A stretch of 64,000 nt of DNA from an uncultured Luteitalea sp. (lineage in GTDB: Bacteria; Acidobacteriota; Vicinamibacteria; Vicinamibacterales; Vicinamibacteraceae). The stretch's first letter is position 1; each line of letters starts with the position of its first letter. A program made the position numbers and the translations under genes. The notes below the pieces were generated by a model that was not told the DNA's origin, ran no database searches, and worked only from the letters and a program-made list of their open reading frames with translations. Shown in pieces: positions 7,660-51,732 of the stretch. The stretch covers positions 155,245-219,244 of the forward strand of contig CAKTDA010000005.1 in the NCBI GenBank assembly GCA_934541105.1, read 5' to 3'.

Positions 7660-7660
7660 C

Positions 7661-27430: not shown

Positions 27431-27466
27431 GAACGCCGAACGCCGAACGTCCAACTCCGGAACGCC
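27431..27466. repeat. heptamer tandem repeat (GAACGCC x2 exact plus 3 degenerate units)
   Basis: gaacgcc gaacgcc gaacgtc caactcc ggaacgcc, in the spacer between the methyltransferase start (27411) and the upstream gene stop (27473). Confidence 0.85.
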
Positions 27467-27472
27467 AGGGCA

Positions 27473-28261
27473 TCACCAGAGCGTGACGCTGATGAACACC
27501 GAGGCGTAGAAGAACAGGAACCGGATGATCCAGGGGCGCCACGCCAGCACATCTCCGGCGGCAATGCGCGGGCCGGCGACGAATATCGCGAACGGCAGCG
27601 CGGAGGCCACGACCATCAGGAGCAGCCTGGGCGACCACTCCGGCTGCCAGCCTGCGCCATCGACTGCGAGCCCGGCAAACGCGATCTGCTGCCGGAACAA
27701 TCCGTCGCCGAGCAGCGCCAGGGGAATGGCGGCCGTGCGCCGCACCACACCTGGCACGTACGGCCCGGGCCACGGCGGCAGCGCTCCGGGCGGCCGCTCG
27801 GGAAGTCCGAAGGCCATCTTCTGGATGCCCGTGGCAATGAGCGCGTAAATCGAGAGGAAGGGCAGCGAGAACATCAACATCGGCCAGCGTCGCTCGAGGG
27901 CGACGTCGCGATCGGTATCCTCGGGGCCGCGGGTGAGCAGGATGAACAGGAACAGGCCGACGACGACCCAGCCAAACCACGGCAGGGAACCGAACCACGC
28001 GCTCCAGCCGTCCGCGCTCGCGCTGGTCGTCATCGCCTGCGCGAGTTGCAGCGGCTCGCCAATCCAGCGCCGGACGACCGATTCACTCAGGAACACCCAC
28101 GCGACAAGGAGCACGTCCTCGACTTCCAGGACGTGCCGGGCGCGTCGTGCTCGCGGACCGTCGGCCGCCCGGGACTGGCGTTCGCCCTTGTACTGCGCCG
28201 CAGCGTCCGCCCCCCGATTCTCGGGGGTGGCCCTCGTGCCCTGCTGGGTCATGCGATGCAT
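27473..28261 (-). CDS. integral membrane protein, hypothetical
   Basis: ORF 27473..28501 trimmed to internal Met (comp. 28259-28261; alternative 28252), because the divergent gene starts at 28314. Several hydrophobic helices (WFGWVVVGLFLFILL, LMFSLPFLSIYALIATG, LLLMVVASALPFAIFVAG). Confidence 0.6.
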   Translation of the reverse strand: MHRMTQQGTRATPENRGADAAAQYKGERQSRAADGPRARRARHVLEVEDVLLVAWVFLSESVVRRWIGEPLQLAQAMTTSASADGWSAWFGSLPWFGWVVVGLFLFILLTRGPEDTDRDVALERRWPMLMFSLPFLSIYALIATGIQKMAFGLPERPPGALPPWPGPYVPGVVRRTAAIPLALLGDGLFRQQIAFAGLAVDGAGWQPEWSPRLLLMVVASALPFAIFVAGPRIAAGDVLAWRPWIIRFLFFYASVFISVTLW

Positions 28262-28313
28262 TATGGACGAGCCGGATGCACGCCCCAGCCAGTGCTGCGC
28301 GTAATATGCGCGC

Positions 28314-28787
28314 ATGCTGAAAACCGTCGCCGCCTCCGGTCTCGTCGTGTTCCTCGCCTGTTCTCCCTCGTTCGCCCAGACGCCGGCACCGGCAAGGGCT
28401 GGTGCCGCGGCCGTTGCCGGCAAGGACGCCGAGGCCGTGCGCAGCGCCGAACTTGCGCGGTTCAAGGCGATGACCACAAACGATCTCGCCACCCTGCGCA
28501 CGCTGCTCGGCGACGACCTGATCTACACGCACTCGAACGCGGCGCTCGACACCAAGGCGAGCTACGTCGGCAGCATCGAGAGCGGCGACCTGAAGTACGT
28601 GTCGATCGAACCGACAGACATGAAAGTTCGCACTTACGGGACTATGGCGGTGATCACGGCGGAGGCGGCAATCACGTCGGTGTCGAAGGGGCAGACGATG
28701 AGCAGCCGGCTGCGGTACACGGACGTCTGGGTGCAGCGCGACGGCCGCTGGCAGATGGTCGGCTGGCAGAGCACGCGGATCCCGTAG
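28314..28787 (+). CDS. NTF2-like (SnoaL/DUF4440-type) secreted protein
   Basis: ORF 28314..28787. Lipoprotein-like signal VVFLACS. ...DDLIYTHSNAALDTKASYV...YTDVWVQRDGRWQMVGWQST is typical of DUF4440/NTF2 folds. Confidence 0.75.
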   Translation: MLKTVAASGLVVFLACSPSFAQTPAPARAGAAAVAGKDAEAVRSAELARFKAMTTNDLATLRTLLGDDLIYTHSNAALDTKASYVGSIESGDLKYVSIEPTDMKVRTYGTMAVITAEAAITSVSKGQTMSSRLRYTDVWVQRDGRWQMVGWQSTRIP

Positions 28788-28795
28788 CGACCGAG

Positions 28796-28857
28796 GAACG
28801 CCGAACGTCGAACGCGTAGGCTGCAGGCTGCAGGCCCTAGGCTGTAGGCTGTAGGCC
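28796..28857. repeat. composite heptamer array: GAACGNC x3 then AGGCTGY x5-6
   Basis: gaacgcc gaacgtc gaacgcg (28796-28816), then t aggctgc aggctgc aggccct aggctgt aggctgt aggcc (28818-28857). It ends directly at ATG 28858. Confidence 0.9.
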
Positions 28858-29775
28858 ATGATGCACCTGGGCTTTGTCACCGCCATCCTGCCCGAGTTCG
28901 ACCTGGAGCAGGTGCTCGCCTTTGCCGCTGCCGAGCGGTTCTCGTGCGTGGAGGTCATGTGCTGGCCTGTCGGCAGGGCCGAACGCAAGTACGCCGGCGT
29001 CACGCACGTCGACGTGACCGATTTCACGCGCGCGCACGGGGAGGACGTGCTCGCGCTGTGCGCGAAGCACGGCGTGTCGATCTCCGCGCTCGGCTACTAC
29101 CCGAACCTGCTCGATCCCGATTCCGGCGTGGCGGAGGTCGCACGCGCGCAGCTCGCGCGGGTGATCACGGCGGCGCCGCTGCTCGGGCTCGACACGGTCA
29201 ACACGTTCGTCGGCCGCGACTGGCGGCGCAGTGTGGACGACAACTGGCCGCGCTTCCTCGAGGTGTGGCGGCCGCTGCTGCGCCTGGCCGAGGACCACGG
29301 CGTGCGCATCGGCATCGAGAACTGCCCGATGTCGTTCACGCAGGACGAGTGGCCGGGCGGCAAGAACCTCTTCACGACGCCCGCGATCTGGCGCCGGGCG
29401 TTCGAGGACCTCGCGTCGCCGAACCTCGGGCTCAACTACGACCCGTCGCACTTCGCGCTGCAGCACATGGACCCGTGCAGCCCCCTGCGCGAGTTCGAGG
29501 ACCGCCTGTTCCACGTCCATGCCAAGGACGTGAAGATCGACAGGCATCGCCTCGACCAGGTGGGCGTGTTTGCCCACCCGCTCGAGTGGCACCAGCCGCG
29601 CATCCCCGGCTACGGCGAGATCGACTGGGCGCACTTCATGGGGGCGCTGATGGAGACGAGCTACCGCGGCCCCGTCTGCATCGAGGTCGAGGACGGCACG
29701 TTCGGCACGACGCTCGAAGGGCGGCAACAGGCGCTGCGCGTCGCGCGCAACGTGCTGGAACCGTATTTCGGGTAG
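28858..29775 (+). CDS. sugar phosphate isomerase/epimerase (xylose-isomerase-like TIM barrel), cytoplasmic
   Basis: ORF 28858..29775. Motifs IGIENCP, HVHAKD and GPVCIEVED are typical of the AP-endonuclease-2/XylA-like TIM-barrel family. Confidence 0.88.
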   Translation: MMHLGFVTAILPEFDLEQVLAFAAAERFSCVEVMCWPVGRAERKYAGVTHVDVTDFTRAHGEDVLALCAKHGVSISALGYYPNLLDPDSGVAEVARAQLARVITAAPLLGLDTVNTFVGRDWRRSVDDNWPRFLEVWRPLLRLAEDHGVRIGIENCPMSFTQDEWPGGKNLFTTPAIWRRAFEDLASPNLGLNYDPSHFALQHMDPCSPLREFEDRLFHVHAKDVKIDRHRLDQVGVFAHPLEWHQPRIPGYGEIDWAHFMGALMETSYRGPVCIEVEDGTFGTTLEGRQQALRVARNVLEPYFG

Positions 29776-29928
29776 TGCCCGGATGGTCGAAGGGGACCGT
29801 CGACCTGAAGGTCGACGGCTACGAACTCACCTGCTCACCTACTACGAACTCACCTGCGAACAATCCGATCGATTCACCAGGAACGGGCCGAGCGATTCGT
29901 GGGCGTCGATGTTCACATCGACGCTCCC

Positions 29929-30831: not shown

Positions 30832-30888
30832 CCCGATTCCGGAACTCCTGGCAACCAGTCTCCGGCGCAGTATAGTGTCCCGCAAGCC

Positions 30889-31608: not shown

Positions 31609-32273
31609 CACGACGCGAGATCCTGCTGCTCGGCCTCGTTGCCGGCACGCTGACGACGAGAGCCGAAGGCCGGCAGGCGCCTGCCGCCGACGACCGGTGG
31701 GCCGCCGACATGGCCGCCTTCGCCAGCGAGGACGCGGCCAGGCCGTTTGCGAAGGGCGGCATTGTCTTCGTGGGGAGTTCGAGCATCCGCTTGTGGAAGA
31801 CCGCGGAGGCGTTCCCGGGCCTGCCGATCCTGAATCGCGGCTTCGGCGGTTCCCGGATTCCCGATTCCGTGCAGCACGTCGAGAGGCTCGTGCTGCGGCA
31901 TGCCCCGCGGACCGTCGTGCTCTACGCCGGCGACAACGACATCGCCGCCGGCCACACCCCGCAGCAGGTGGGGGAGAGCTTCGATGCGTTCGTGGGCAAG
32001 GTCCACGCAGCGCTGCCACAGGCGCGCATCGCCTTTGTCGCCATCAAGCCGAGCCTCGCGCGCTGGAACCTCGTGGACAAGGTCCGTGAAGCCAATCGCC
32101 TGATTCGCGCACGCTGCGACGCCGACGACCGACTGGGCTTCATCGACGTGGACGGGCCGATGATCGGCTGGAACGGCAAGCCCCGCGCCGACCTGTTCGT
32201 CAAGGACGGCCTCCACCTCTCGGAGAAGGGGTACGCGCTCTGGAACGTCCTCACGCGGCCGTTCCTGGACTAG
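31605..32273 (+). CDS. SGNH/GDSL-family hydrolase
   Basis: ORF 31605..32273, ATGA overlap with the DUF1080 gene. Block I VFVGSSSI, block II GFGGS, block III YAGDND, block V DGLHLS. Confidence 0.85.
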   Translation: MTRREILLLGLVAGTLTTRAEGRQAPAADDRWAADMAAFASEDAARPFAKGGIVFVGSSSIRLWKTAEAFPGLPILNRGFGGSRIPDSVQHVERLVLRHAPRTVVLYAGDNDIAAGHTPQQVGESFDAFVGKVHAALPQARIAFVAIKPSLARWNLVDKVREANRLIRARCDADDRLGFIDVDGPMIGWNGKPRADLFVKDGLHLSEKGYALWNVLTRPFLD

Positions 32274-32280
32274 AACCCGC

Positions 32281-32378
32281 CGAACGCCGAACGTGGACGG
32301 ACGAGGGCCGGAGGCCGACCGACGAGGGCCGACGGCCGACCGACGAAGGCCGAAGGCCGACCGACGAAGGCCGAAGAC
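32281..32378. repeat. 14 heptamer units in unbroken register with a 21-nt super-repeat
   Basis: cgaacgc cgaacgt ggacgga cgagggc cggaggc cgaccga cgagggc cgacggc cgaccga cgaaggc cgaaggc cgaccga cgaaggc cgaagac. The super-repeat is CGACCGA-CGARGGC-CGAMGGC x3 (32316-32378). It ends 7 nt before ATG 32386. Confidence 0.95.
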
Positions 32379-32385
32379 CACTGTG

Positions 32386-33438
32386 ATGCCCCACAAGACC
32401 TACCGCGTGGCCGTCCTCGGCCTCGGACACTGGTACTCCGCCTACGGGCTCGCGCGGGCGCTGCCCGAATACCCGCACGCCGAACTGGTGGCGGTTGCCG
32501 AGCCCGATCGCGCCCGCCGCGAGGAGTACGCCGGGACGTTCCGCATCGACGCCGCAGCCGACTACGCGGACGTGATTGCCCGCCGCGACGTCGACATCGT
32601 CCACATCGCATCGCCGGTGGGCGACATCCCGGCGCTGGCGATCGCGGCGGCCCGTGCCGGCAAGCACATCGTGCTCGGCAAGCCGATGGCGATGACGCTC
32701 GACGAGGCCGACGACATGGTGCGCGCCGTCGAGGCCGCGGGCGTGCTGTGCGTGCCGTTCCAGGGCATCATGCGGCTCCGGCACCAGCACCTGAAGGCGC
32801 GCCTCGATGCCGGCGCGATCGGCGATCTCGCGGTGCTGCACCAGGCGGGGCGCTGGTCGATTGCCGAAGATTGGTACCGCTCGGGCCAGCCGGGATGGTT
32901 CGTGGATCCGGCGCAGGTGCCCGGCGGCGCGTTGATCGACGAGGGCATCTACTGGATGGATCTGTTCCGGTGGCTTGCCGGCAGTGAGGTCGTCGAGGTC
33001 GACGCGCGCACGCGCAACATCGTCCACACCGACATCCCGGTCGAGGACTGGGGCTTTGCGATCTTCACCTTCGCCAACGGCATCACGGCTACGCTCGAAG
33101 CGTCGTGGACCATCAACGCGCCCCGACGGACCGCACCCTCTCCCAAGCACAACAGCGTTGTCCGCCTCGAGTTGATCGGCACGCGTGGCGAGTTGATGGA
33201 GCAGTGGTTCCGATCGCCTGGTGGTGCGGCACTCACCGCAGGTGCCGAGGACTGGGTGTACGAGCGGCGCAGCGACGAGCCGTTTGCCGCTCCCGCGCCG
33301 TTCCCGCTGAATCACCTCGTGGAGTGCCTGGCAGGCCGGGCCACCCCGCTTGCGACGATCCGGGATGCGCGGGCGTCGCTGGCGATGGCCCTTGCGGCCT
33401 ACGAATCCGCACGCACGGGCCGTCCGGCCAGACCGTGA
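32386..33438 (+). CDS. Gfo/Idh/MocA-family oxidoreductase (no signal peptide)
   Basis: ATG 32386 inside ORF 32293..33438. YRVAVLGLGHWYS Rossmann motif, VLGKPM. The track N-terminal extension is a translation of the repeat array. Confidence 0.9.
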   Translation: MPHKTYRVAVLGLGHWYSAYGLARALPEYPHAELVAVAEPDRARREEYAGTFRIDAAADYADVIARRDVDIVHIASPVGDIPALAIAAARAGKHIVLGKPMAMTLDEADDMVRAVEAAGVLCVPFQGIMRLRHQHLKARLDAGAIGDLAVLHQAGRWSIAEDWYRSGQPGWFVDPAQVPGGALIDEGIYWMDLFRWLAGSEVVEVDARTRNIVHTDIPVEDWGFAIFTFANGITATLEASWTINAPRRTAPSPKHNSVVRLELIGTRGELMEQWFRSPGGAALTAGAEDWVYERRSDEPFAAPAPFPLNHLVECLAGRATPLATIRDARASLAMALAAYESARTGRPARP

Positions 33439-37564: not shown

Positions 37565-38044
37565 ATGGACAGCCGACACCTCCTGCTCGACACCTTCGTC
37601 CACCTCGCACCGTTGCGCATGCTCGAGGATCTGTCGGGCGACCAGGCGGTGCGTCCGCCGGCGCCGATGATGCACAGCGTGGCGGGCCTCGTGGCCCATA
37701 TGGACTTCTGGCAGCAGTGGTTCCTGCAGCGATGCCGCGGCGTGGCCGTGCCCATGGCGGCGCGTGCGGCCGACGGCTGGCCGGACGTCACCGCGGTGGG
37801 CTGGCCGACCCTCGTGGCCCGCTTCGAAGAGGGGCTTCGTGAGGTCGCCGGGCTCGGTGGCGATGCCGAGGCGCGGGCCACGCCAATCCGTCCGACCATC
37901 GAACTGCCGGCGATGGCCGGCTACACGCAGCACGACGCCGTCGTGCACGTCGCGCAGCACAACTCGCATCACCTCGGGCAGGTCGTCTCGGCGCGGCAGG
38001 TGTTGGGCCTGTGGCCCCCGCGGGCCGGCAGCTGGACGTGGTGA
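37565..38044 (+). CDS. DinB-family protein
   Basis: ORF 37565..38044. HMDFWQQWF ... HVAQHNSHHLGQV shows the DinB_2-type His triad pattern. Confidence 0.8.
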   Translation: MDSRHLLLDTFVHLAPLRMLEDLSGDQAVRPPAPMMHSVAGLVAHMDFWQQWFLQRCRGVAVPMAARAADGWPDVTAVGWPTLVARFEEGLREVAGLGGDAEARATPIRPTIELPAMAGYTQHDAVVHVAQHNSHHLGQVVSARQVLGLWPPRAGSWTW

Positions 38045-38051: not shown

Positions 38052-38087
38052 CGAGCCGAACACCGAACGTCGAACGCCGAACGCCGG
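38052..38087. repeat. heptamer tandem repeat filling a convergent intergenic spacer
   Basis: cgagc cgaacac cgaacgt cgaacgc cgaacgc cgg. It occupies nearly all of the 43 nt between stop 38042-38044 (+) and stop 38088-38090 (-). Confidence 0.9.
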
Positions 38088-41841: not shown

Positions 41842-42357
41842 TCAGTCGACGGCGGGGAGCCGCAGGACGTGACGGAAGCCGTCCGTGCCGACGCTGACCT
41901 CGATCCGCTGCGCCCGGCGCGTCGTCGAGACGACGAGGCGGCCGCGCCGTGCCGGGGGGCAGCCGTCCCGCTCGCGGATCACGCCGACGACGTCGAGGAC
42001 GACACGCGCGCAGGTTCGCGCGAGCTGGCGTGCGTCGGCCTGCACACACGAGACGCGATCGTCGAGCCGGATCGCGACGTCGGCGTGGTCCTGCCACGAC
42101 GGACGGGTCGCGCTGAGGGTCTGATGGAGCAACGGGTGGATCTCGACGACATCCGTCGGTGCGCCGCCGGTGGCGTCGCCGCCGACGTCGAGGCAGGCAT
42201 CGGCCGCGAGCGCCGATGCCGACTGGTACGCGGTCACGTCGGGGTAATCGGCCGCCGGAATCCGGACTTGAACGGAAGCCCATCCACTCCGGGGTCCGGA
42301 CGCGTAGAATCGTGCGCGTCGATCCGCGCGGACCCCGCGCCAGAGGAGCCACTGCAT
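41842..42357 (-). CDS. hypothetical protein (start unresolved)
   Basis: Part of ORF 41842..42621. This is the only frame in the 41.8-42.35 kb gap with G/C-rich third positions. The ATG at comp. 42355-42357 overlaps the divergent amidohydrolase ATG by 2 nt, so the true start is probably internal (for example GTG at comp. 42237). No recognised domain. Confidence 0.3.
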   Translation of the reverse strand: MQWLLWRGVRADRRARFYASGPRSGWASVQVRIPAADYPDVTAYQSASALAADACLDVGGDATGGAPTDVVEIHPLLHQTLSATRPSWQDHADVAIRLDDRVSCVQADARQLARTCARVVLDVVGVIRERDGCPPARRGRLVVSTTRRAQRIEVSVGTDGFRHVLRLPAVD

Positions 42358-43681
42358 GCCGACCCGATCCAGCTGGCGGGCCGTGATTGGGCTCGCCACG
42401 CTCGTGGCCTGTCTCGTCCCGGTCCGTCTCGCCGCCCAGGACCAGCCGCACGCGTTCGTCAACGCGCGCATCATTCCGATCTCGGGTCCCGAGATTCCGA
42501 CGGGCACGCTCGTCGTCCACAAGGGGCGCATCGTCGCCGTCGGGGCCACGGCCGCCATACCGGCCGGCGCGGTGCGCATCGACGCAGCGGGCAAGACGCT
42601 GATGCCCGGCCTCGTGGACACGCACAGCCATATCGGTGGCGGTCAGGGTGGCGACAGTTCCGCGGCGCTCCACCCGGACGTCCGCCTCCTCGACTCGTTC
42701 GACGCCCGCCACTCGGGATTGCAGCGCGCACGCGCCGGCGGCATCACGACCGTGAACGTGATGCCGGGCTCCGGCCACCTGATGAGCGGCCAGACGCTGT
42801 ATCTGAAGCTGCGCAGCGTGACGACAATCGACGGCCTCGTCATCACGCTGGATGACGGGCGCATCGCCGGCGGCCTGAAGATGGCAAACGGCACCAACCC
42901 CATGCGGCCCACCGGTCCGTTCCCGGGGACGCGGGCGCGATCGGCGGCCATGGCGCGCGACCTGTTCGTGAAGGCGCAGGCCTACCGCGAGAAGGTGAAA
43001 GCCGCAGGCGGCGACGCGGCAAAGCGTCCGGCCCGCGACCTCGGGATGGAAGCCCTCGTCGAGGTGCTCGACGGCACGCGCACCGTCCACTTCCACACGC
43101 ACCGCCATGACGACATCCTGACGGCCATCCGCATCGCGAAGGAGTTCGGCTTCACGCCCGTGCTCCAGCACGTGTCCGAGGGCTGGAAGGTCTCCGAGGA
43201 GATCAAGGCCGCCGGCTTCCCGGCGTCGGTCATCGTGATCGACGCGCCCGGCGGCAAGCTGGAAGCCGTGGACCTGTCGATGACCACGGCGCCGGTCCTC
43301 GACAAGGCGGGCGTCCTCACCGGGTTCCACACGGATGACTACGTGACCGACTCGCGCTTCTTCCTGCGCTCGGGTGCGCTTGCCGTCCGGGCGGGCATGC
43401 CGCGCGACCGCGCGCTGCATGCGCTCACGCTTGCCGGCGCGCAGATGCTGAAGCTCGACGCCCGCGTGGGCTCGCTCGAGCCCGGCAAGGACGCCGACGT
43501 GCTCGTGCTCTCGGGCGATCCGCTGAGCGTCTACACGAAGGTCGAACAGACGTGGGTGGAAGGCCGCAAGGTCTTCGACCTCGCCAACCCCGGGGATCGG
43601 CTCGTCGCGTTCGGCGGCCAGGGTGCCACGCGCGGCGGTGAGACGCTGCACGTCCACGCAGAAGAGGAAGGCCATCGATGA
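42356..43681 (+). CDS. amidohydrolase-family protein, secreted
   Basis: ORF 42356..43681, GAGGAG RBS at 42343-42348, signal peptide. ARIIPISG...HKGRIVAVG...LMPGLVDTHSHIGG metal-binding motif. Confidence 0.88.
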   Translation: MPTRSSWRAVIGLATLVACLVPVRLAAQDQPHAFVNARIIPISGPEIPTGTLVVHKGRIVAVGATAAIPAGAVRIDAAGKTLMPGLVDTHSHIGGGQGGDSSAALHPDVRLLDSFDARHSGLQRARAGGITTVNVMPGSGHLMSGQTLYLKLRSVTTIDGLVITLDDGRIAGGLKMANGTNPMRPTGPFPGTRARSAAMARDLFVKAQAYREKVKAAGGDAAKRPARDLGMEALVEVLDGTRTVHFHTHRHDDILTAIRIAKEFGFTPVLQHVSEGWKVSEEIKAAGFPASVIVIDAPGGKLEAVDLSMTTAPVLDKAGVLTGFHTDDYVTDSRFFLRSGALAVRAGMPRDRALHALTLAGAQMLKLDARVGSLEPGKDADVLVLSGDPLSVYTKVEQTWVEGRKVFDLANPGDRLVAFGGQGATRGGETLHVHAEEEGHR

Positions 43682-44934
43682 ACGCCGAACGGAGGAACGC
43701 CGAGCGGAGGCACGTGAGTGGCGCCCTGCGCGTCATGGCCCTGTGCGCGGCCGGTCTGTTCGTGCTCGGCAGCGGCACGGCGCGTGCGCAGATCGCCGTG
43801 CGGGCAGACACGATCCACACGATGGCTGGTGCACGCATCACCGACGGGGTCGTGCTCGTACGCGACGGCCGGATCGAACGCGTGGGGCCGGCATCGCAGG
43901 TCGCCGTGCCTGCCGGGTACAGGGAGGTGCGCGCGAAGGTCGTGACGCCGGGCCTCATCGACGCCCACACCGTCGTCGGCCTCTCCGGGTACCTGAACCA
44001 GCCGCACGACCAGGATCAGGTCGAGCGGTCGGCGCCGATGCAGCCGGAGCTTCGTGCCGTTGACGCGTACAACCCGCAGGATCGGCTCGTCGAGTGGATT
44101 CGGCAGCACGGGGTCACGACCATGCACACGGGTCACGGGCCGGGTGCGCTGATCTCCGGCCAGACCATGGTCGTCAAGACGGTGTCGCCGCTTGCGGCCG
44201 AGGCGATCCTCGTGCCCGAGGCGATGGTCGCCGCGACGCTTGGCGACGGGGCCGTGGCGCAGGGTCGTGCGCCCGGCACGCGCTCGAAGGCCGTCGCGAT
44301 GCTGCGCGCCGAGTTGATCAAGGCGCGCGACTACGCCGACAAGATGGCCGGGCCCGAGGACAAGCGGCCGTCGCGTGACCTACGGCTCGAGGTGCTCGCC
44401 CGCGTGATCCGCAAGGAGACGCCGCTCCTCGTCACGGTGCAGCGTGCCGTGGACATCCAGGCCGCGCTCCGCGTGGCGAAGGAGTTCGACATCCGCGTGA
44501 TCCTCGACGGCGCGGCCGAGGCGCACCTGCTCGTGGACGCGATCAAGGCCGCGGGCGTGCCCGTGATCGTCCACCCGACGATGGCGCGGGCCAATGGCGA
44601 GACCGAGAACCTGTCGCAGGAGAACGCCGCGGTGTTGCGCCGTGCGGGCATCCCGGTGGCGCTCCAGAGCGGGTTCGAGGGCTACGTGCCGAAGACGCGC
44701 GTCGTGTTGTTCGAGGCCGGCGTGGCGGCAAGCCGCGGGCTCACGTTCGACCAGGCGCTGGCGACCGTCACGATCGACGCGGCGAGGCTCCTTGGCGTGG
44801 ACAAGCGGGTGGGATCGATCGAGGCCGGCAAGGACGCCGATCTCGCGCTCTTCGACGGCGATCCCTTCGAGTACGCGACGCACGTGACGGGCGTGTTCAT
44901 CGGCGGCCGGCAGGTGAGCGACACGGTGCGCTGA
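43678..44934 (+). CDS. amidohydrolase-family protein, secreted (tandem paralogue)
   Basis: ORF 43678..44934, ATGA overlap with the upstream paralogue. ...ALRVMALCAAGLFVLGSGTARAQ signal and PGLIDAHTVVGL. The first 11 codons are encoded by a 15-nt tandem repeat. An alternative start is the Met of MALCAAG. Confidence 0.85.
   Translation: MNAERRNAERRHVSGALRVMALCAAGLFVLGSGTARAQIAVRADTIHTMAGARITDGVVLVRDGRIERVGPASQVAVPAGYREVRAKVVTPGLIDAHTVVGLSGYLNQPHDQDQVERSAPMQPELRAVDAYNPQDRLVEWIRQHGVTTMHTGHGPGALISGQTMVVKTVSPLAAEAILVPEAMVAATLGDGAVAQGRAPGTRSKAVAMLRAELIKARDYADKMAGPEDKRPSRDLRLEVLARVIRKETPLLVTVQRAVDIQAALRVAKEFDIRVILDGAAEAHLLVDAIKAAGVPVIVHPTMARANGETENLSQENAAVLRRAGIPVALQSGFEGYVPKTRVVLFEAGVAASRGLTFDQALATVTIDAARLLGVDKRVGSIEAGKDADLALFDGDPFEYATHVTGVFIGGRQVSDTVR
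43680..43709. repeat. 15-nt tandem duplication built from GAACGCC-type units, in frame with the CDS start
   Basis: gaacgccgaacggag / gaacgccgagcggag (14/15 identity). It translates as NAERR NAERR directly after ATG 43678. Confidence 0.85.
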
Positions 44935-44946
44935 CATTCCCCGCGT

Positions 44947-44964
44947 GCGCGGAGAATTCCGCGC
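44947..44964 (+). terminator. short GC hairpin after the amidohydrolase pair
   Basis: GCGCGGA-GAAT-TCCGCGC (7-bp stem, 4-nt loop), 13 nt after the stop at 44934. No U-tract. Confidence 0.3.
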
Positions 44965-45042
44965 TCGCGGCTTGCGCGCCGCCCGATTTGCCAGCGGTTT
45001 CGAGCAGATCGGGCGTGGCCCCGGCCTTGCACCGCGGGCAGC

Positions 45043-46458
45043 GTGCCCCGTGGTCCCTCGACCGACGTCCCGACAGCGCCGCAGCCGGTCACCCTCGACC
45101 TGCTGCGGCGCTACGACCGTCCCGGTCCCCGCTACACGTCATATCCCACCGCCGTCGAGTTCCATGGCGGCTTCGACGGCGACGCCTACGCCGCCCGGCT
45201 CCGCGAGGCCGCGTGCCGGCCCGCCGAGCCCCTCTCGCTCTACCTCCACCTGCCGTTCTGCGAGTCGCGCTGCGGGTTCTGCGGCTGCTCGGTGATCATC
45301 ACGCGGAAGCGGCACGTCGCCGCGCAGTATCTCGAGTACCTCGCACGCGAGATCGCGATGGTGGCCGCTGCACTCGGCAGCCGCCGGCGCGTGGTGCAGT
45401 ACCACTGGGGCGGCGGCACGCCCACATACCTGTCGGTCCCGCAGATGCGTGCGCTGCACGACGCCGTGCAGCGTCACTTCGACGTGGACGCGACCGGCGA
45501 ACTCGCCCTCGAGGTGGACCCGCGCGTCACGACCACCGATCACCTTGATGCAGTGCGCGCGCTCGGCTTCAATCGGCTGTCGCTCGGCGTGCAGGACTTC
45601 GACGCCGACGTGCAGCAGGCCGTCAACCGCATCCAGGGCGTGGACCAGACCCGCGCGCTCGTGGACCACGCGCGCGGCCTGGGGTTCACGTCGATCAACG
45701 TGGACCTGATCTACGGCCTCCCGCGGCAGACGCCCGGCTCGTTCGCCGCCACGGTCGACACCGTCATCGGCGTGCGGCCCGATCGCATCGCGGCCTACTC
45801 GTTTGCGCACGTCCCGTGGATCCGCGCACACCAGAAGCTGCTGAAGGTCGAGGAACTGCCGACGGCCGACCGCAAGCTGCAGCTGCTCCTCGATGCCAGG
45901 GCGCGCCTGCTCGCCGCCGGGTATGCGCCGCTCGGCATCGATCATTTCGCGCTCCCCGAGGACGACCTCGCGCGTGCCGCGGCCTCGGGGAGGCTCCATC
46001 GCAACTTCATGGGCTACACGACACGGCCGGCCGCGGACCTCGTCGGGCTCGGGGTCTCGGCCATCGGTGACGTCGCCGGGGCCTTCGCGCAGAACACGAG
46101 GAAGCTCAGTGCCTACTACGCGGCACTCGACGCCGGCCGCTTCCCGATCGAACGCGGCTACGCGCTCGATGCCGACGATGCGATCAGGCGCCATGTCATC
46201 GCGCAGTTGATGTGCAACATGCAGGTGGACACGCGCGACGTCGCGAGCCGCTTCGGCATCACGTTCGACGAGTACTTCGCCCACGAGCGCCGTGAACTCG
46301 CCGATGGGCCCATCGCCGACGGCTTCCTGCGCGACGAGGACGGCTGGCTGCGCGCCACGCCGGCCGGGCGGTTCTTCGTCCGCAACGTCTGCATGATCTT
46401 CGACCGCCACCTGCGCCGGAAGCGCGCCGAGGCGCCGGTCTTCTCGAGGACGATCTGA
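45043..46458 (+). CDS. hemN: oxygen-independent coproporphyrinogen III oxidase (radical SAM)
   Basis: ORF 45043..46458 (GTG). LLRRYDRPGPRYTSYPTA, radical-SAM CESRCGFCGC, HWGGGTPTYL. Confidence 0.9.
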   Translation: MPRGPSTDVPTAPQPVTLDLLRRYDRPGPRYTSYPTAVEFHGGFDGDAYAARLREAACRPAEPLSLYLHLPFCESRCGFCGCSVIITRKRHVAAQYLEYLAREIAMVAAALGSRRRVVQYHWGGGTPTYLSVPQMRALHDAVQRHFDVDATGELALEVDPRVTTTDHLDAVRALGFNRLSLGVQDFDADVQQAVNRIQGVDQTRALVDHARGLGFTSINVDLIYGLPRQTPGSFAATVDTVIGVRPDRIAAYSFAHVPWIRAHQKLLKVEELPTADRKLQLLLDARARLLAAGYAPLGIDHFALPEDDLARAAASGRLHRNFMGYTTRPAADLVGLGVSAIGDVAGAFAQNTRKLSAYYAALDAGRFPIERGYALDADDAIRRHVIAQLMCNMQVDTRDVASRFGITFDEYFAHERRELADGPIADGFLRDEDGWLRATPAGRFFVRNVCMIFDRHLRRKRAEAPVFSRTI

Positions 46459-46459
46459 C

Positions 46460-47515
46460 GTGACGCTGCCTGCCTCCTCCTCCGTGCTCGACGCCCGCGA
46501 TGTGCGAATGGTCAGTCGGGTTGTCGAGCCGCCGCCAGTCGGCGTCCTGCTGTTCAACATGGGCGGCCCCGATACGCTCGACGACGTCGAGCCGTTCCTC
46601 GTGCGGCTGTTCTCGGACCGCAACATCATCGAGCTGCCGCTCGGGGCGCTCCTGCAGCCCGTCGTGGCGCGCGTCATCGCGAAGTCGCGCGGCCCCGGCG
46701 TGCGCCGCAACTATGCCGCCATCGGCGGCGGATCGCCGCAACTGGCCCTCACGCGACAGCAGGCCTCGGCACTGGCAGCGCGGCTCGAGGCCGCGACCGG
46801 ACGCCGGCACGTCGTCGAGATCGCGATGAGGTACTGGCAGCCCGACACCGAGCGCGCGCTGCGGCGGCTGGCCGCCGAGCGGGTCTCGCGCATCGTCACG
46901 CTCACGCTGTATCCGCACTACTCCCGGGCGACGACCGGGTCATCACGGCGCGAGTTCGAGCGCGTGGTGTCGCAGCCGGCATGGCGCGATCGATTCGAGG
47001 TGTCGCACGTGGACGCCTATCCGGACCATCCGCTGTACCTGGATGCGATGGCCGACACCGTGCGGCGCGCGCTGATGGCGTACCCGGCCGGGCTGCGCGA
47101 CACGGTGACCTTGCTGTTCAGCGCCCACGGCCTTCCGCAGTCGTTCGTGGACGAGGGCGACCCCTACGTCGAGCACACGGAGATGACGGTGCGCGGCATC
47201 CTCGAGCGCCTTGGCGCGCCGAACCCGCATGCCATCGGGTTCCAGTCCCGCACGGGGCCCGTGAAGTGGATCGGGCCCGGCACCGAGGATGTGCTGCGCG
47301 GGCTCGGGCGCCGTGGCGTGACGTCCGTGCTGATGGTGCCCGTCAGCTTCGTCTGCGATCACATCGAGACGCTGTACGAGGTCGATCAGCTGTTCCGGGA
47401 GGACGCGCACGCGGCCGGCATCACGGACTACCGGCGCAGCGAGGCCCTCAACACGCACCCGCTCTTCATCGAGGCGCTTGCCGATCTCGTGCAGCGGCGG
47501 CTCGTCCCGGCGTGA
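46460..47515 (+). CDS. hemH: ferrochelatase
   Basis: ORF 46460..47515 (GTG, 1 nt after the hemN stop). VGVLLFNMGGPDTLDDVEPFLVRLFSD, LTLYPHYS, FSAHGLP, VSFVCDHIETLYE. Confidence 0.9.
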   Translation: MTLPASSSVLDARDVRMVSRVVEPPPVGVLLFNMGGPDTLDDVEPFLVRLFSDRNIIELPLGALLQPVVARVIAKSRGPGVRRNYAAIGGGSPQLALTRQQASALAARLEAATGRRHVVEIAMRYWQPDTERALRRLAAERVSRIVTLTLYPHYSRATTGSSRREFERVVSQPAWRDRFEVSHVDAYPDHPLYLDAMADTVRRALMAYPAGLRDTVTLLFSAHGLPQSFVDEGDPYVEHTEMTVRGILERLGAPNPHAIGFQSRTGPVKWIGPGTEDVLRGLGRRGVTSVLMVPVSFVCDHIETLYEVDQLFREDAHAAGITDYRRSEALNTHPLFIEALADLVQRRLVPA

Positions 47516-48891
47516 AACGCGTCGCGATAGTCGGCGCAGGCATCGGCGGGCTGGCCGTGGCTCACGCCCTGCTGAAGCAGGCGCATCGCGACCGCAGGCT
47601 CGACGTGGTCGTCCTCGAACGCGCACCGCGGGCCGGGGGCAACATCCGCACCGAGTCGATCGACGGGTTCCTCTGCGAGTGGGGACCGAACGGCTTCCTC
47701 GACAACGCGCCGGCAACGCTCGACCTCGTCCGCGACATCGGGCTGGCGCCGCGGCTCCAGCCGAGCGACGACCGCGCACGCCGCCGCTACGTGTTCCGCT
47801 ACGGGGCGCTCCACCCCCTGCCAGGCGGCCCGATCGACTTTGCGCGCAGCGGCCTGCTTTCGTGGCCCGGCAAGCTGCGGCTTGCGGCGGAGCCGTTCGC
47901 TCGGCGTCGGCCCGACGGCGACGAGACCATCCATGCATTCGCCGCGCGGCGCATCGGCGCGGAGGCGGCCGATGTCCTCATCGATGCCATGGTGTCGGGC
48001 GTGTTCGCCGGCGACGCACGCGCGCTGTCGCTGCACGCGTGCTTTCCCGCGATGTGGCAGATGGAAGATGCGCACGGCGGCCTGTTCCGCGCGCTGCTTG
48101 CCCGCCGGCGGCGCGGGGGGCGCCGGGATGGTGAGGCGATCGGATCTCCACTCGGGCGCCTCACGTCGTTCCGTGGCGGCGCCGAGGAGCTCGTCCGCGG
48201 CCTCGTCGGCGCCCTCGGCACCGCGCTGCGGACCGGGACCGAGGTGCAGGGCATGGCCCGCGTCGGCAACCGGTATCGGCTTGCCGTGACGGGCGGTGCG
48301 GCCGTCGATGCGGATGCCGTCGTCTTCGCGGCCGGCCCCGCCACGACGGCCCGGATCGTCCGCGACATCGACGTACCGCTCGCCGAGACGCTCGAGGGCC
48401 TGTCGCAGGCGGCCCCAATCGCGGTGATCTGCCTGGGATACCGCGCCGATCGGCTGCCGCGGCCGCTCGACGGCTTCGGCTTCCTCGTGCCGCGCAGCGA
48501 GGGCGTGCGCACGCTCGGCGTGCTGTGGGACTCGTCGATCTATCCGGGGCGGGCTCCTGAAGGCTCCGTGCTGCTGCGCGCGATGATCGGCGGCGCGACC
48601 GATCCCGGCGCGGCGACGCTCGACGATGCGCAGCTGCTCGACGTGGTGCGGAAGGACCTCCGCACCACGATGGGTCTCGACGCGATGCCCGAGCTCGTCC
48701 GCATCATCCGGCATCACGCGGGGATACCGCAGTACACCGTCGGGCACCTGGATCGGCTCCGGCTGGCGGAGCAGCGCCTTGCCGCGCTCCCCGGCCTCGC
48801 GCTTGCGGGCAATGGTTACCGCGGCGTGTCCATCAACACCTGCATCGCCGACGCCATCCCGCTGGCCGACCGCCTGCTGGCGGGTCGGTAG
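47512..48891 (+). CDS. hemY: HemY-type FAD-dependent protoporphyrinogen/coproporphyrinogen oxidase
   Basis: GTG 47512 in the frame of ORF 46981..48891, GTGA overlap with the hemH stop. VAIVGAGIGGLAVAH dinucleotide fold, ...GFLCEWGPNGF..., and C-terminal GNGYRGVSINTCI. Confidence 0.88.
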   Translation: MKRVAIVGAGIGGLAVAHALLKQAHRDRRLDVVVLERAPRAGGNIRTESIDGFLCEWGPNGFLDNAPATLDLVRDIGLAPRLQPSDDRARRRYVFRYGALHPLPGGPIDFARSGLLSWPGKLRLAAEPFARRRPDGDETIHAFAARRIGAEAADVLIDAMVSGVFAGDARALSLHACFPAMWQMEDAHGGLFRALLARRRRGGRRDGEAIGSPLGRLTSFRGGAEELVRGLVGALGTALRTGTEVQGMARVGNRYRLAVTGGAAVDADAVVFAAGPATTARIVRDIDVPLAETLEGLSQAAPIAVICLGYRADRLPRPLDGFGFLVPRSEGVRTLGVLWDSSIYPGRAPEGSVLLRAMIGGATDPGAATLDDAQLLDVVRKDLRTTMGLDAMPELVRIIRHHAGIPQYTVGHLDRLRLAEQRLAALPGLALAGNGYRGVSINTCIADAIPLADRLLAGR

Positions 48892-48968
48892 GTCCAATCG
48901 CTCGACGCACCTGCGTTGCGTCGCGCCGTGGCGGTCGCGATGACGGCCGATGCGGTACAGTCCGCGGC

Positions 48969-49865
48969 ATGCATCGCCGAGACTTCCTCTCCCACGCGGC
49001 GGCCATGGCCGCCGCCACGGTGCCGGCACGCGCGCTGGCGCAGGCCCCAGACGCCAACCCGTCGCCTGCCGGTCTCCCGCTCCCGGTCAGGGTCGGCATG
49101 ACCGACTGGAACCTGGGGCGGCGGGGCGACATCACGAAGATCGCGCTCGCCCGCGAGCTCGGCCTCGACGGCATCCAGGTGAGCCTGACGTTCCCGACCG
49201 ACGACAGTCCGCACCTGCGTCAACCGGAAACGCAGGCGGCCTTCAAGCGTGCGGCGCTGACGCACGGGATCCAGATCTGCTCGCTGGCCATCGGCAACCC
49301 GGGGAAGACGCGGCTGCCGTTCCACACGAACCCGGCGTCGGCGGTGCTGCTCGTCGAAGCGGTCGAGGTGGCACGCAACCTCGGCACGACGAACATCCTG
49401 CTGCCGATTCTCGGCACCAGCCACATCGACATGTCGAGCCAGGCCCAGGTGGACACGTTCGTGGCGATGATGAAGGAGGTCTCGCGCTACGCGGAGAAGG
49501 CCGGCGTCGTCATCGCGCTCGAGGACTGGATTTCGGCCGAGGACAACCTGCGGCTGCTCGACGCGATCGGCTCCGAGGCCGTCGGCGTGTACTACGACGC
49601 GCGCAACATCAAATCACGGCTGCACGACCCGTACGGCGAGCCCGCCAAGCTCAACAAGTGGATTGACCAGATTCACGTCAAGAACGGGCAGAAGCTGCTG
49701 CGCGAGCCGGAGCTGCTCGACTGGCCGCGACTCGCTCAGGAGTACGTGGACATCGGGTACCGCGGCTGGTACGTCCTCGAGACCGGCTCACCGACAGGTA
49801 ATTTCGCGGCCGATACACGGGCAAACATCGAGTACGTGCGCCGGACGTTCCGCATGCCTGGCTGA
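48969..49865 (+). CDS. xylose-isomerase-like TIM-barrel protein, Tat-exported
   Basis: ORF 48969..49865. MHRRDFLSHAAAMAAATVPARALA signal. IALEDW..., HVKNG and YRGWYVLET motifs. Confidence 0.88.
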   Translation: MHRRDFLSHAAAMAAATVPARALAQAPDANPSPAGLPLPVRVGMTDWNLGRRGDITKIALARELGLDGIQVSLTFPTDDSPHLRQPETQAAFKRAALTHGIQICSLAIGNPGKTRLPFHTNPASAVLLVEAVEVARNLGTTNILLPILGTSHIDMSSQAQVDTFVAMMKEVSRYAEKAGVVIALEDWISAEDNLRLLDAIGSEAVGVYYDARNIKSRLHDPYGEPAKLNKWIDQIHVKNGQKLLREPELLDWPRLAQEYVDIGYRGWYVLETGSPTGNFAADTRANIEYVRRTFRMPG

Positions 49866-49928
49866 TGAGTTCGGGGGCGCAGCGGGCGAAGGTGGAACCT
49901 TCTGACCCCTTCCCGTCGGAGGCACATC

Positions 49929-50224
49929 ATGGTTCCCGCACGCCGGCTGAAGCCGCTCGTTGGCTGTCTGCTGTCCACCCTTCTCTGTTTCACGCCCCTG
50001 CCCGCAGCGGCACAGGCGATTTACGGTACGGTCACCGGCCAGGTCGAGGACGACTCCGGTGCGGCCGTCCCCGGCGCCACGGTCCAACTCGCGAACGAAG
50101 CGACCGGTCTTCAACTCGATGGCGTGAGTGACGAGAACGGCACGTACACGATCCGCAACGTCACGGCAGGTCCGTACACGCTGCGCGCGTCGCTGCAAGG
50201 CTTCAAGGAGTTCGTCCAGACCGG
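49929..50224 (+). pseudogene. 5' fragment of a CarboxypepD_reg/TonB-dependent receptor gene
   Basis: ORF 49929..50534 has a GGAGG RBS and a signal peptide. GTVTGQVEDDSGAAVPGATVQLANEATG...ENGTYTIRNVTAGPYTLRASLQGFKEF parallels the N-terminus of the 22012 receptor. After about codon 98 the frame becomes Arg/Ala-rich with no coding character. Confidence 0.65.
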
Positions 50225-50352
50225 ACGCGTACTACGCGGGGACCTCGCCACTCGACTACGGTGGCACGCGCGTCGAGGCGCTCGGCCTGCCGCGCGAGGT
50301 GCTGGAGAAGTTCTACTTCCGCAACGCGCAGCGGTTGATTGGCGTGCAGTAG
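50225..50352 (+). pseudogene. 3' fragment of an amidohydrolase-2-type gene
   Basis: Frame of ORF 50128..50352 ends ...YYAGTSPLDYGGTRVEALGLPREVLEKFYFRNAQRLIGVQ. This resembles the C-terminus of the 61006 amidohydrolase (...VYGLHLPDDVLEKVYRTNADRVLGW). No N-terminal part is present. Confidence 0.5.
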
Positions 50353-50391
50353 CCGGCCCTCGGCACCCGGCCCGCCTTCCCGGGGTTGCCG

Positions 50392-51690
50392 TCAGGAGCC
50401 TCTTGCCCATTCGGGCGGCTGGCGGAGCCGATGGAGCATCTCGCCGGCCTTTCGCACGAGCAGGACGCCCTCGTCCTTCCTGTTGGCGAACGACTCGACG
50501 TCGATCGTCGCCGGATCGCGGTAGCCGAGGTTGATCTGGTGGCAGATCGCCTCGGGGATCTGGCTCGCGACGGTGACCTTGATGCGGCAGCGCTCGACGC
50601 CGTCCTCGTAGGTGCCGATGCCGCGCACATGGGTCGAGTGGGCCAGCACGCCCCACGGCAGGTGGCCGAAGCGGTCCCATTGCGCGCGGAAGTAGTCGCG
50701 GCAGTGGTAGCCGATCTCGAGCAGCAGCCGGCCATGCGTCACCGACACCTCACGGATGTGCGGGGCGTAGATGATCAACTCGCCCCCGTCGGCCACGACG
50801 GGCTCGAGCTTGTACATGCCCTTGCCGCCGGTCCAGAGGTCCTCGTACATCGGCGGGACGCACGACAGCACCGTGTGATACGGGCGCTCCTCGTAGACGA
50901 TGTGCGTGCGCCGCGAGAGTTCGCTGGCCTCGGTCCACGCGGCCTCCGGCGTCCCGCCGAAGATCCCCGCGAGCGCGCCGTCAGGGCGCACGACGAGGCA
51001 GAAGCACGTGCGCGGGGTGGAGACGAGCGCGCCGGCGGCGTCCACGATCCGGCGCACCGGCGTCCACTTGCTCCCGATGATCATCGGGTTGGTGACGACG
51101 GCGCCGAGCCAGTGGAAGAAGTTGAGGATCTCGGGACCGCTCACGCCGGGGAACAGGTACTTGTTCCCGCCGGAGAACCCGACGACCTCGTGCGGGAACA
51201 CGGGGCCGATGATGACCACCTGGTCGTACTCGAGGACGCGGCGGTTGATGGCGACCGGCACGTCGGTGTCGAACGCGCCGTCGGTGAGTTCGGCCACGCG
51301 GGCGCCGTCGAGCACGCCGATGCGCTCGAGCGCCGCCGGGTTGTCCCACTCGTGGTTGAAGAACCCGACGTCCCGATACGTCCCCTGCCGCTCCTCCATC
51401 GTCATGTCGAGGCGCCGGCAGATGGCCTCCTCGCTCATCGGCTGGTGCGTCCCGAGCGCGATCAGCACGTCGAGCCGCGCCACGGTGCCGGCCAGTTGCT
51501 CGTGCAGCAGGCGGAAGACCGTGCCGACGGGTGCCGTGCGCGTGCCGTCTGGCACGATGGCCAGCACGCGCTGGCCGCGCCAGCGATCGGCAGGACAGGT
51601 GCGCGCGAGGACGTCGGCAACCGACGCCGGCGTCACCGCCGCATCAGCGCCGGCAACGGCGGAGTGGCAGGGTGCGGAGGGAGCGTTCAC
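50392..51690 (-). CDS. LarA-like (DUF2088, nickel-pincer-dependent 2-hydroxyacid racemase/epimerase family) protein
   Basis: ORF 50392..51690 (GTG start). VLAIVPDGTRT, LIALGTHQPM, PHEVVGFSGGNKYLFPG (the Lys-containing GG.K motif used for cofactor tethering in LarA), and AHSTH. Confidence 0.85.
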   Translation of the reverse strand: MNAPSAPCHSAVAGADAAVTPASVADVLARTCPADRWRGQRVLAIVPDGTRTAPVGTVFRLLHEQLAGTVARLDVLIALGTHQPMSEEAICRRLDMTMEERQGTYRDVGFFNHEWDNPAALERIGVLDGARVAELTDGAFDTDVPVAINRRVLEYDQVVIIGPVFPHEVVGFSGGNKYLFPGVSGPEILNFFHWLGAVVTNPMIIGSKWTPVRRIVDAAGALVSTPRTCFCLVVRPDGALAGIFGGTPEAAWTEASELSRRTHIVYEERPYHTVLSCVPPMYEDLWTGGKGMYKLEPVVADGGELIIYAPHIREVSVTHGRLLLEIGYHCRDYFRAQWDRFGHLPWGVLAHSTHVRGIGTYEDGVERCRIKVTVASQIPEAICHQINLGYRDPATIDVESFANRKDEGVLLVRKAGEMLHRLRQPPEWARGS

Positions 51691-51704
51691 GGAGGGGAGA
51701 TCTT

Positions 51705-51732
51705 AACGCCGAACGCCGAACGCCGAACGCCG
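51705..51732. repeat. AACGCCG x4 exact tandem heptamers
   Basis: aacgccg aacgccg aacgccg aacgccg, between the LarA-like start (51690) and the GNAT stop (51735). Confidence 0.95.

Follow-up and report, generated by a model that had tools for sequence, protein, structure and literature searches.

Period-7 tandem arrays in the window

The window analyzed here is a 64,000-nucleotide stretch of a metagenomic contig from a Luteitalea-like acidobacterium (∼70% G+C), and the features in question are short tandem arrays with a 7-nt unit that lie at or between its genes. The adjoining genes encode ordinary enzymes, including a glyoxalase, GH95, a methyltransferase, DUF4440, a xylose-isomerase-like protein, a GDSL lipase and a GFO/IDH/MocA oxidoreductase; DinB, M23 peptidase, amidohydrolase, Lar_N and GNAT acetyltransferase genes also border arrays. 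The sugar-phosphate isomerase encoded at 28858–29775 falls in a 90%-identity cluster with proteins named Luteitalea sp., and the source is therefore most likely one of the Vicinamibacterales (Acidobacteriota). Tandem Repeats Finder (TRF) detected eight period-7 arrays at seven non-coding sites. A common unit, GAACGCC, was present in six of these arrays and was read on the plus strand in all six. The portion of the genome examined for arrays amounted to 81 kb, comprising the window and 17 kb beyond its ends.

A strict self-similarity scan of the window returned six period-7 runs, all of them non-coding, and either none or one for each other period between 4 and 12. The mean number of period-7 runs in 100 dinucleotide shuffles of the window was 0.03. 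At the level of individual sequences, GAACGCCGAACG (≤1 mismatch) occurred 14 times against 1.26 expected, with 13 of the 14 on the plus strand, and CGAAGGNCGAAGG occurred 10 times against 0.39 expected. Given that the CGAAGGNCGAAGG matches fall on the minus strand at 18159–18250 and on the plus strand at 32344–32377, the former array is tied to the plus-strand tail of the array that begins near 32281. A first-pass annotation of this DNA had proposed that 18158–18290 carries a reverse-complement CGAAGG/CGAAGGT variant of the same family, and this proposal holds. Its broader claim, that of a dispersed intergenic heptamer family, was also borne out, as TRF arrays were recovered at every site it had named, period 7 was enriched over shuffled sequence and the strict runs were all non-coding.

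Independent gene calls made on public contigs placed all arrays between genes except that at 43680–43714, which enters a predicted N terminus, in agreement with the earlier description of arrays in spacers or at the edge of coding sequences (CDSs). Array ends were located 0–8 nt from a stop codon (facing positions 27466/27473, 28787/28796, 32273/32281, 38044/38052, 38087/38088, 43681/43680 and 51732/51735). Three arrays are sense to transcription, two are antisense, one is convergent and one is divergent, so that every gene context and either strand are represented, as had been stated.

Organization of the individual arrays

The longest array, at 18155–18255, lies in the divergent spacer between the glyoxalase gene (minus strand) and the GH95 gene (plus strand). 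It reads as CGAAGGT/CGAAGG/CGAAGGA on the minus strand (CCTTCGA CCTTCG on the plus strand), with 15.1 copies assigned by TRF at period 7. A 13-nt super-unit (7 + 6) is repeated 6.8 times at 97% identity (TRF score of 157) and is followed by (CCTTCGT)3. A CTTCTGA/CTTCCGA array comes next on the plus strand, at 18258–18288, consisting of a 14-nt super-unit present 2.2 times at 100% identity (TRF). This array stops 2 nt short of a −10-like TACGCT hexamer, itself 6 nt 5′ of the GH95 ATG (18306).

At 27430–27466, TRF identified ∼5 GAACGCC units on the plus strand, antisense to transcription; the upstream minus-strand gene has its stop codon 6 nt away, and the methyltransferase gene (minus strand) starts at a distance of 19 nt. 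The left edge of this array is a perfect 12-bp palindrome, GCGTTCGAACGC (27425–27436), in which one inverted unit abuts the array. Complete GAACGCC arrays in inverted pairs, with the potential to fold into long hairpins, were observed in a Chloroflexia metagenome-assembled genome (L110, 2031–2099 and 3242–3330).

The array at 28796–28815 (TRF; plus strand, ∼3 GAACGCC units) is sense to transcription and begins 8 nt past the stop codon of the DUF4440 gene. Directly adjoining it, at 28816–28857 on the plus strand, is an array of a second heptamer family that was missing from the first-pass annotation; it comprises ∼6 GTAGGCT/GCAGGCT units, with a 21-nt super-unit present twice at 90% identity (TRF). 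This second array extends up to the ATG at 28858, and every GTAGGCT unit contains the −10-like hexamer TAGGCT. The array is in effect a row of phased −10 hexamers, the last of which lies 7 nt before the ATG.

A compound plus-strand array of ∼14 units at 32277–32378 takes up the spacer that separates the GDSL lipase gene from that of the GFO/IDH/MocA oxidoreductase. It begins with two copies of CGAACGC and drifts via CGAGGGC, CGACGGC and CGACCGA to CGAAGGC. TRF reported period 7 (32277–32376) and also period 21, the 21-nt super-unit being present 4.8 times at 83% identity (score of 130). The 21-nt super-period noted earlier is therefore real; the suggestion that it would place contacts on one helical face is not supported, given that super-periods of 13, 14, 15 and 21 nt are inconsistent with such phasing. 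The 21-nt super-period keeps an open reading frame (ORF; VDGRGPEADRRGPTADRRRPKADRRRPKTTVM..., 32293–32385) open in frame with the downstream GFO/IDH/MocA gene. However, both the public gene calls and the ortholog in the related locus L124 begin with the ATG at 32386, which makes translation of this ORF unlikely.

Three further arrays complete the set, all on the plus strand. The first consists of ∼5 CGAACGC units at 38052–38087 (TRF, 38055–38086) and fills a 43-nt convergent spacer that runs from the stop codon at 38044 to that at 38088. The array at 43680–43714 (TRF) contains GAACGCCGAACGGAG 2.3 times with a 15-nt period (7 + 8). This array overlaps the upstream amidohydrolase gene at its stop codon and continues in frame within the predicted N terminus (MNAERRNAERRH...) of the next gene, also an amidohydrolase. 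This is the single array that overlaps a CDS, and an in-frame 15-nt period at an N terminus is what selection against frameshifts would permit. Finally, 51705–51732 contains four exact copies of AACGCCG, as had been annotated and as TRF confirmed. The array, antisense to transcription, lies 2 nt from the acetyltransferase stop codon (minus strand) and upstream of the Lar_N gene (minus strand), and abuts a −10-like TAAGAT on the minus strand.

Arrays in independent assemblies

The window differs from metagenome contig ERZ27286916 k141_181041 of the European Nucleotide Archive (ENA; 308.9 kb; L232) by two single-nucleotide polymorphisms and one indel. This MEGAHIT contig carries identical arrays at 27431, 28796, 32281, 38052, 43680 and 51705. 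Logan contigs of run ERR7738460 contain complete, identical arrays at 27431, 28796 and 43680 (the last in L237, window 42186–50718), and the Logan contig that covers the 32281 array is identical as far as its own end. For the arrays at 38052 and 51705, independent confirmation came from the ENA contig only.

The single indel lies in the 18155 array, which is 39 nt shorter in k141_181041, corresponding to three copies of the 13-nt super-unit CCTTCGACCTTCG (window 18198–18236). Thus, in two assemblies that are otherwise near-identical (two single-nucleotide polymorphisms over ∼42 kb), the length of the longest array differs by exactly 3 × 13 nt, and the six other arrays are identical in both. 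The difference reflects either a real length polymorphism or a collapse by the assembler at k = 141. Logan contigs end inside the two longest arrays (L233 at 18195 and L235 at 32370), which indicates that these simple sequence repeats (SSRs) fragment short-read assemblies.

This length difference and these broken contigs are what might be expected if the arrays were an assembly or sequencing artefact. Such an origin is so improbable as to be negligible, as the ENA assembly reproduces six arrays without change, Logan contigs also contain three of these complete and identical, orthologous arrays are present in unrelated metagenomes (see below), and GAACGCC arrays occur in finished isolate genomes, e.g. 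the chromosomes of Streptomyces okerensis and Burkholderia lata. That the arrays exist is settled, and the uncertainty is confined to the exact copy number at 18155.

Orthologous spacers in related genomes

Relatives were obtained by a protein-anchored metagenome scan, which yielded the syntenic loci L123–L126, with a marker protein 85–88% identical and neighboring proteins 55–88% identical to those of the window. Across 842 kb of related loci, 25 period-7 arrays were found in comparison with ≤8 for any other period.

The spacer upstream of the methyltransferase gene, which contains ∼5 GAACGCC units in the window, holds (AACGCAG)7 followed by (AACGCCG)3–4 in L123, GGGTACG/GGGAACC units in L125 and ACCGGCA/ACTGGCA units in L126. 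The spacer after the DUF4440 gene contains (GAACGCC)3 in the window, ∼5 CGAACGC units in L124, beginning 3 nt past the stop codon, (ACGAACG)2.7 in L125, and ACGCATG/GCGCATA units with GCCGAACGCA remnants in L123. Copy number clearly differs among the orthologous arrays. Given these changed units at orthologous spacers, the position of an array and its 7-nt period outlast the unit sequence. In the comparison of position with copy number in related genomes that the first-pass annotation had proposed, arrays at orthologous spacers were kept, with changed units and copy numbers. The presence of GAACGCC-type arrays in relatives indicates further that the GAACGCC family predates the window genome.

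Some relatives have a favorite unit of their own, as in L125, where three ACCCGGT-type arrays in both orientations occur within 8 kb, and differing units are found within a single relative genome (L126 and L140). A rough codon model that called 67% of sequence coding assigned 8 of 22 period-7 arrays in relatives to coding DNA, and this split of arrays by period was not relied on.

Other short units were also observed in the spacers of relatives, namely 8-nt intergenic arrays (CTGAAATT/TGAAATTC), a 9-nt array (AAAGGGCGA and then an inverted copy) and 20-nt units (L123 1325–1380; L126 885–974, 4115–4146 and 3382–3492). The tendency of this clade toward short tandem arrays in spacers is therefore not restricted to period 7.

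Distribution of the GAACGCC unit

In a collection containing one genome per species, (GAACGCC)4 was found at ≥120 loci in more than ten phyla. The first-pass annotation had listed, among candidate roles, a footprint peculiar to this lineage, and such a restriction, together with any lineage-specific element, is ruled out by these loci. Hosts among the matches listed include Streptomyces and Nocardia (Actinomycetota), Burkholderia and Paraburkholderia (Burkholderiales), and members of Verrucomicrobiota, Planctomycetota, Chloroflexota, Myxococcota, Acidobacteriota, Armatimonadota and other groups. Among these listed matches, several hosts carry many (GAACGCC)n arrays per genome, some as inverted pairs, and a rough gene model called only 5 of 152 arrays coding. 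Here too, the arrays are nearer the upstream stop codon than the downstream start, and their orientation to genes is divided among 17 sense, 16 antisense, 13 convergent and 5 divergent cases. The near equality of sense and antisense cases rules out a transcription-strand rule. Neighboring arrays in other genomes of the listed set share a strand in 11 cases and are opposite in 12; thus, although all six GAACGCC arrays of the window are on the plus strand, no general replication-strand rule applies.

In viral contigs, (GAACGCC)3 was present at 6 loci and three permuted units of the same composition at 8, 3 and 12, small counts of limited power. As the permuted units are about as common, GAACGCC is not globally special, within the power of that comparison. 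Seeding of arrays from the commonest heptamers is also ruled out, given that the rotations of GAACGCC rank between 152 and 2391 among the heptamers of the window. Among units with two A/T residues, these were adjacent in 14 of 25, in comparison with one third expected, a weak trend that is not informative.

Structural properties and comparison with described elements

As single strands, the GAACGCC arrays fold more weakly than shuffled sequence (z = +0.7 to +1.6), and no inverted symmetry was detected inside them, as the first-pass annotation had maintained. The fold of 28796–28857, which spans both the GAACGCC and the GTAGGCT arrays, contains a hairpin in the GTAGGCT part (z = −2.9); this is the sole hairpin-capable array, but it is without a T-run. 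No shared flanking sequence was found among the arrays of the window. A search of Rfam 15 at gathering score returned no family at any array, and its sole match in the window was a tRNA-Arg gene. That gene (TCT, 2513–2589, minus strand) was the single RNA gene detected.

Several known element types are excluded on these grounds. The GAACGCC arrays have neither a hairpin nor a T-run and are not intrinsic terminators, and the folding and Rfam results together reject any known RNA family, hairpin or terminator. The absence of inverted symmetry and of shared flanks distinguishes them from palindromes of the repetitive extragenic palindrome (REP) or bacterial interspersed mosaic element (BIME) type, and the absence of common flanks also rules out a miniature inverted-repeat transposable element (MITE) or larger mobile element. 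CRISPR arrays have 24–48-nt repeats with spacers, in contrast to the directly abutting 7-nt units described here. The earlier exclusion of terminators, REP elements and CRISPR is thus confirmed by folding, Rfam search and array anatomy. Heptamer repeats of the G-quadruplex type (GGGNATC) are likewise excluded, as the GAACGCC unit lacks a G-run and its single-strand folding is weaker than that of shuffled sequence.

By contrast, the arrays belong to the known class of bacterial heptanucleotide SSRs, in which the unit and the host clade are new. According to Mrazek, Guo and Shah (2007), as summarized in PMC4679880 and PMC4692102, no other class of long SSR is as abundant as heptanucleotides in many bacterial genomes, e.g. 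those of Burkholderia, Actinobacteria, Xanthomonas and cyanobacteria; units that are not multiples of 3 avoid coding DNA; and slippage has been proposed as their origin. A match between 7 nt and the footprint of the polymerase active site, favoring slippage, is the sole suggestion for the 7-nt preference in these two papers. The LSSR5-11 class described there resembles the arrays of the window in its tandem 7-nt units, length beyond chance, non-coding location and, probably, variable length, and is typical of the large genomes of free-living bacteria; among the examples described are neither a GAACGCC unit nor a host from the Vicinamibacterales (Acidobacteriota). In the window, iteration exceeds compositional expectation in both the strict scan and the GAACGCCGAACG count, the independent gene calls restrict units that are not multiples of 3 to non-coding DNA, and one favorite unit dominates many arrays (six GAACGCC arrays plus CGAAGGN derivatives in 34 kb of the 81 kb examined).

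Close individual parallels are GGGAATC in Xanthomonas and GGGGA(T/C)T in Nostoc PCC 7120 (PMC4692102). In each case, one favorite heptamer occupies many intergenic sites, in arrays of 2 to 26 units on both strands and in inverted pairs, and array position is kept between related species as length and sequence vary. Xanthomonas genomes contain ∼185 GGGAATC arrays each, conserved in position and variable in length between species (Rehm et al. 2015, PMC4692102). The Xanthomonas and Nostoc units differ from GAACGCC in having G-runs and forming G-quadruplexes. The TAACTGA repeats of marine Beggiatoaceae, cyanobacteria and some Bacteroidetes (MacGregor 2015, PMC4679880) and the STRR sequences of Calothrix PCC 7601 are also dispersed intergenic heptamer arrays, and TAACTGA, like GAACGCC, is a single unit found in phylogenetically distant lineages (PMC4679880). 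However, TAACTGA lies mostly directly upstream of start codons, where a role in translation has been suggested (PMC4679880), whereas the arrays of the window have no fixed orientation and are closer to stop codons; the GAACGCC unit is also GC-rich, unlike TAACTGA. The GAACGCC dimer, in any rotation, had no match in the searchable literature, and heptamers go unmentioned in a 2025 tree-of-life survey of short tandem repeats. Therefore, the earlier statement that no such element has been described is correct for the exact unit and incorrect for the class, which PMC4692102 and PMC4679880 describe.

Arrays adjoining probable leaderless promoters

In 9 of the 55 genes of the window, a TANNNT hexamer precedes the called start by 5–10 nt, at ∼9-fold the density seen at other offsets, and no Shine-Dalgarno sequence was found between the hexamer and the start in these genes. 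Examples are TACGCT-6-ATG, TAGCCT-5-ATG, TAGGCT-7-ATG, TACAGT-7-ATG and TAGAAT-9-ATG, and the start sites include 10975 (minus strand), 18306, 27411 (minus strand), 28858, 30889, 48969, 52740 and 61006. This suggests that many transcripts of the organism are leaderless. Four arrays abut such a −10-like hexamer located 5–9 nt 5′ of a start (18291–18296, 27417–27422 on the minus strand, 28845–28850, and 51700–51705 on the minus strand), and arrays therefore occupy the −35 or upstream regions of probable leaderless promoters.

A conserved motif, (C/G)AGTATAGTGT, was found in all relatives 10–14 nt 5′ of the ATG of a 3-keto-disaccharide hydrolase-like gene (window 30866–30876; L123 ∼19640; L125 ∼6925; and L124 ∼4848, where it reads TCTATAGTTG) and probably corresponds to a conserved −10 region; in L124, the motif is directly adjoined by a (CATTCGG)3.7 array.

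Origin of the arrays and alternative explanations

The arrays are best explained as a slippage-driven family of heptanucleotide SSRs that has been filtered into non-coding DNA by selection against frameshifts and is largely neutral, a reading that we consider probable. The unit family, consisting of GAACGCC and the one- and two-step derivatives CGAAGGC and CGAAGGT, would be specific to the genome or clade. In the proposed mechanism, either slipped-strand mispairing or unequal exchange, in the course of replication or repair, would create arrays and drive their turnover; when one unit has acquired a point change or a 1-nt indel, the altered sequence may then be amplified as a block of two or three units. 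The higher-order blocks of 13, 14, 15 and 21 nt, together with unit drift, form a pattern typical of mutation and subsequent slippage or unequal exchange of several units. The 39-nt length difference at 18155, the altered units and copy numbers at orthologous spacers and the in-frame 15-nt variant at 43680 point in the same direction. Also in favor of this reading are the unique enrichment of period 7 in the window and its relatives, the breaks of short-read contigs inside the two longest arrays, the lack of shared flanks, structure or an Rfam match, the balanced orientation across phyla and the similar frequency of permuted units in viral contigs. As a 7-nt period shifts the reading frame, arrays would survive only in non-coding DNA or, at CDS edges, as in-frame 15- or 21-nt derivatives. 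In this compact genome, they would end up composing most of the short spacers that they occupy, most likely as near-neutral filler, and any effect on promoters or translation initiation would be incidental. Of the roles put forward in the first-pass annotation, a hypermutable microsatellite or slippage footprint is accordingly the one favored here, and a sequence-specific binding array is left unsupported.

Several observations weigh against this explanation. Pure random slippage does not account for the sharing of one unit by 6 of ∼9 arrays in 34 kb, the rotations of GAACGCC not being among the commonest heptamers of the window. In 75 independent arrays from other loci, no unit was seen more than twice. 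The occurrence of all six GAACGCC arrays on the plus strand has a two-sided p of ∼0.03. All arrays of the window fall within a 34-kb stretch (18155–51732, i.e. 18–52 kb), and none was found in the other 47 kb examined (−7341 to 18154 and 51733 to 73581, including 7.3 kb to the left of the window and 9.6 kb to the right). Relatives with no more than 55–88% protein identity also retain arrays at orthologous spacers, a persistence that is long for a neutral microsatellite unless a mutation bias keeps regenerating the arrays. Lastly, the 39-nt difference at 18155 may reflect assembler collapse at k = 141 and not a true polymorphism.

An alternative is that the favorite heptamer is spread and maintained by an active, sequence-directed process instead of passive slippage. 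In one possible route, a protein that reads the heptamer would stall replication and thereby expand the sites that it recognizes; in another, repair or templated insertion would seed new arrays from old. GAACGCC is common to relatives L123 and L124 and, among the matches listed, is the dominant array unit in unrelated genomes of Planctomycetota, Chloroflexota, Verrucomicrobiota and Myxococcota. Active spread is nevertheless regarded as unlikely. Another explanation treats the arrays as double-stranded DNA platforms for an abundant sequence-specific protein, nucleoid-associated or regulatory, with one protomer per 7-bp unit; selection for binding, or stalling of replication at the bound protein, would then account for a single favorite unit per genome. 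The six arrays with one unit on one strand, the recurrence of genome-specific favorites in relatives such as L125, the like pattern in published cases (PMC4692102, PMC4679880) and array persistence at orthologous spacers would all fit. However, units vary between orthologous spacers and between arrays of one relative genome (L126, L140), which argues against an array for any single sequence-specific protein, a role that the first-pass annotation had listed as a candidate. In addition, copy number spans 3 to ∼20, convergent stop-stop spacers are occupied as readily as promoter-near sites, the super-periods show no helical phasing, and no candidate binding protein among the window genes could be linked to the arrays. 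Thus, a binding platform is also improbable.

Given the position of four arrays next to −10-like hexamers, the arrays might alternatively be tunable promoter or 5′-region elements in which copy number changes downstream expression, as in contingency loci. Precedents are the 7-bp repeats upstream of Haemophilus influenzae hmw1A/hmw2A (PMC8262952, PMC12721329) and the neuO heptanucleotide repeat (PMC8262952, PMC12721329, PMC13001214), which, as is proposed for the arrays of the window, change copy number by slippage; some arrays of the window are also promoter-proximal. The −10-like hexamer carried by the GTAGGCT unit itself and the assembly-dependent length of the longest array are also consistent with such tuning. 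By contrast, hmw and neuO are single loci at surface or virulence genes with a demonstrated effect on expression, whereas the arrays of the window occupy many loci beside ordinary metabolic genes and include the 38052 array between two convergent stop codons, so that the position expected of an hmw-type contingency locus is found in part of the set. Among the cross-phylum matches listed, convergent cases outnumber divergent ones (13 versus 5) and arrays lie nearer the upstream stop codon. Moreover, as long as the promoter-proximal junction is fixed, gain or loss of units leaves the −35 sequence unchanged, and adjacency to a −10 hexamer is expected anyway in spacers of 40–110 nt. Promoter tuning is therefore given little credence. 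Action at the RNA level is less likely still and is judged very improbable. Here, the arrays would present single-stranded sites for an oligonucleotide/oligosaccharide-binding (OB)-fold or cold-shock-type protein, with one monomer per heptamer, and thereby influence translation or the stability of the mRNA, as has been proposed for TAACTGA repeats. In single-stranded form, the arrays have unusually little structure (z = +1.1 to +1.6); they lie within likely co-transcribed spacers, and heptamer binding by CspB is cited in PMC4679880. However, the transcribed strand would read GAACGCC at three sites and GGCGUUC at two, one site is convergent, and the 17 sense and 16 antisense cases among the cross-phylum matches listed do not show the orientation bias expected of a strand-specific RNA element.

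Significance

Slippage with frameshift filtering, the explanation favored here, leaves the current understanding of bacterial SSRs unchanged, and the arrays are a useful but ordinary data point. They add a GC-rich, structure-free heptamer SSR from Acidobacteria (Vicinamibacterales), and evidence that array positions outlive unit sequences across relatives. They also provide evidence that arrays can, in a compact genome, take up an intergenic spacer completely, the −35 region of probable leaderless promoters included. In practical terms, these arrays break short-read assemblies and could serve in strain typing. The data bear on two questions that have stood for nearly twenty years, namely the preference of bacteria for a 7-nt unit and the presence of one favorite unit per genome. 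If active spread were true, the arrays would constitute a class of self-propagating elements with chromosome-strand polarity.

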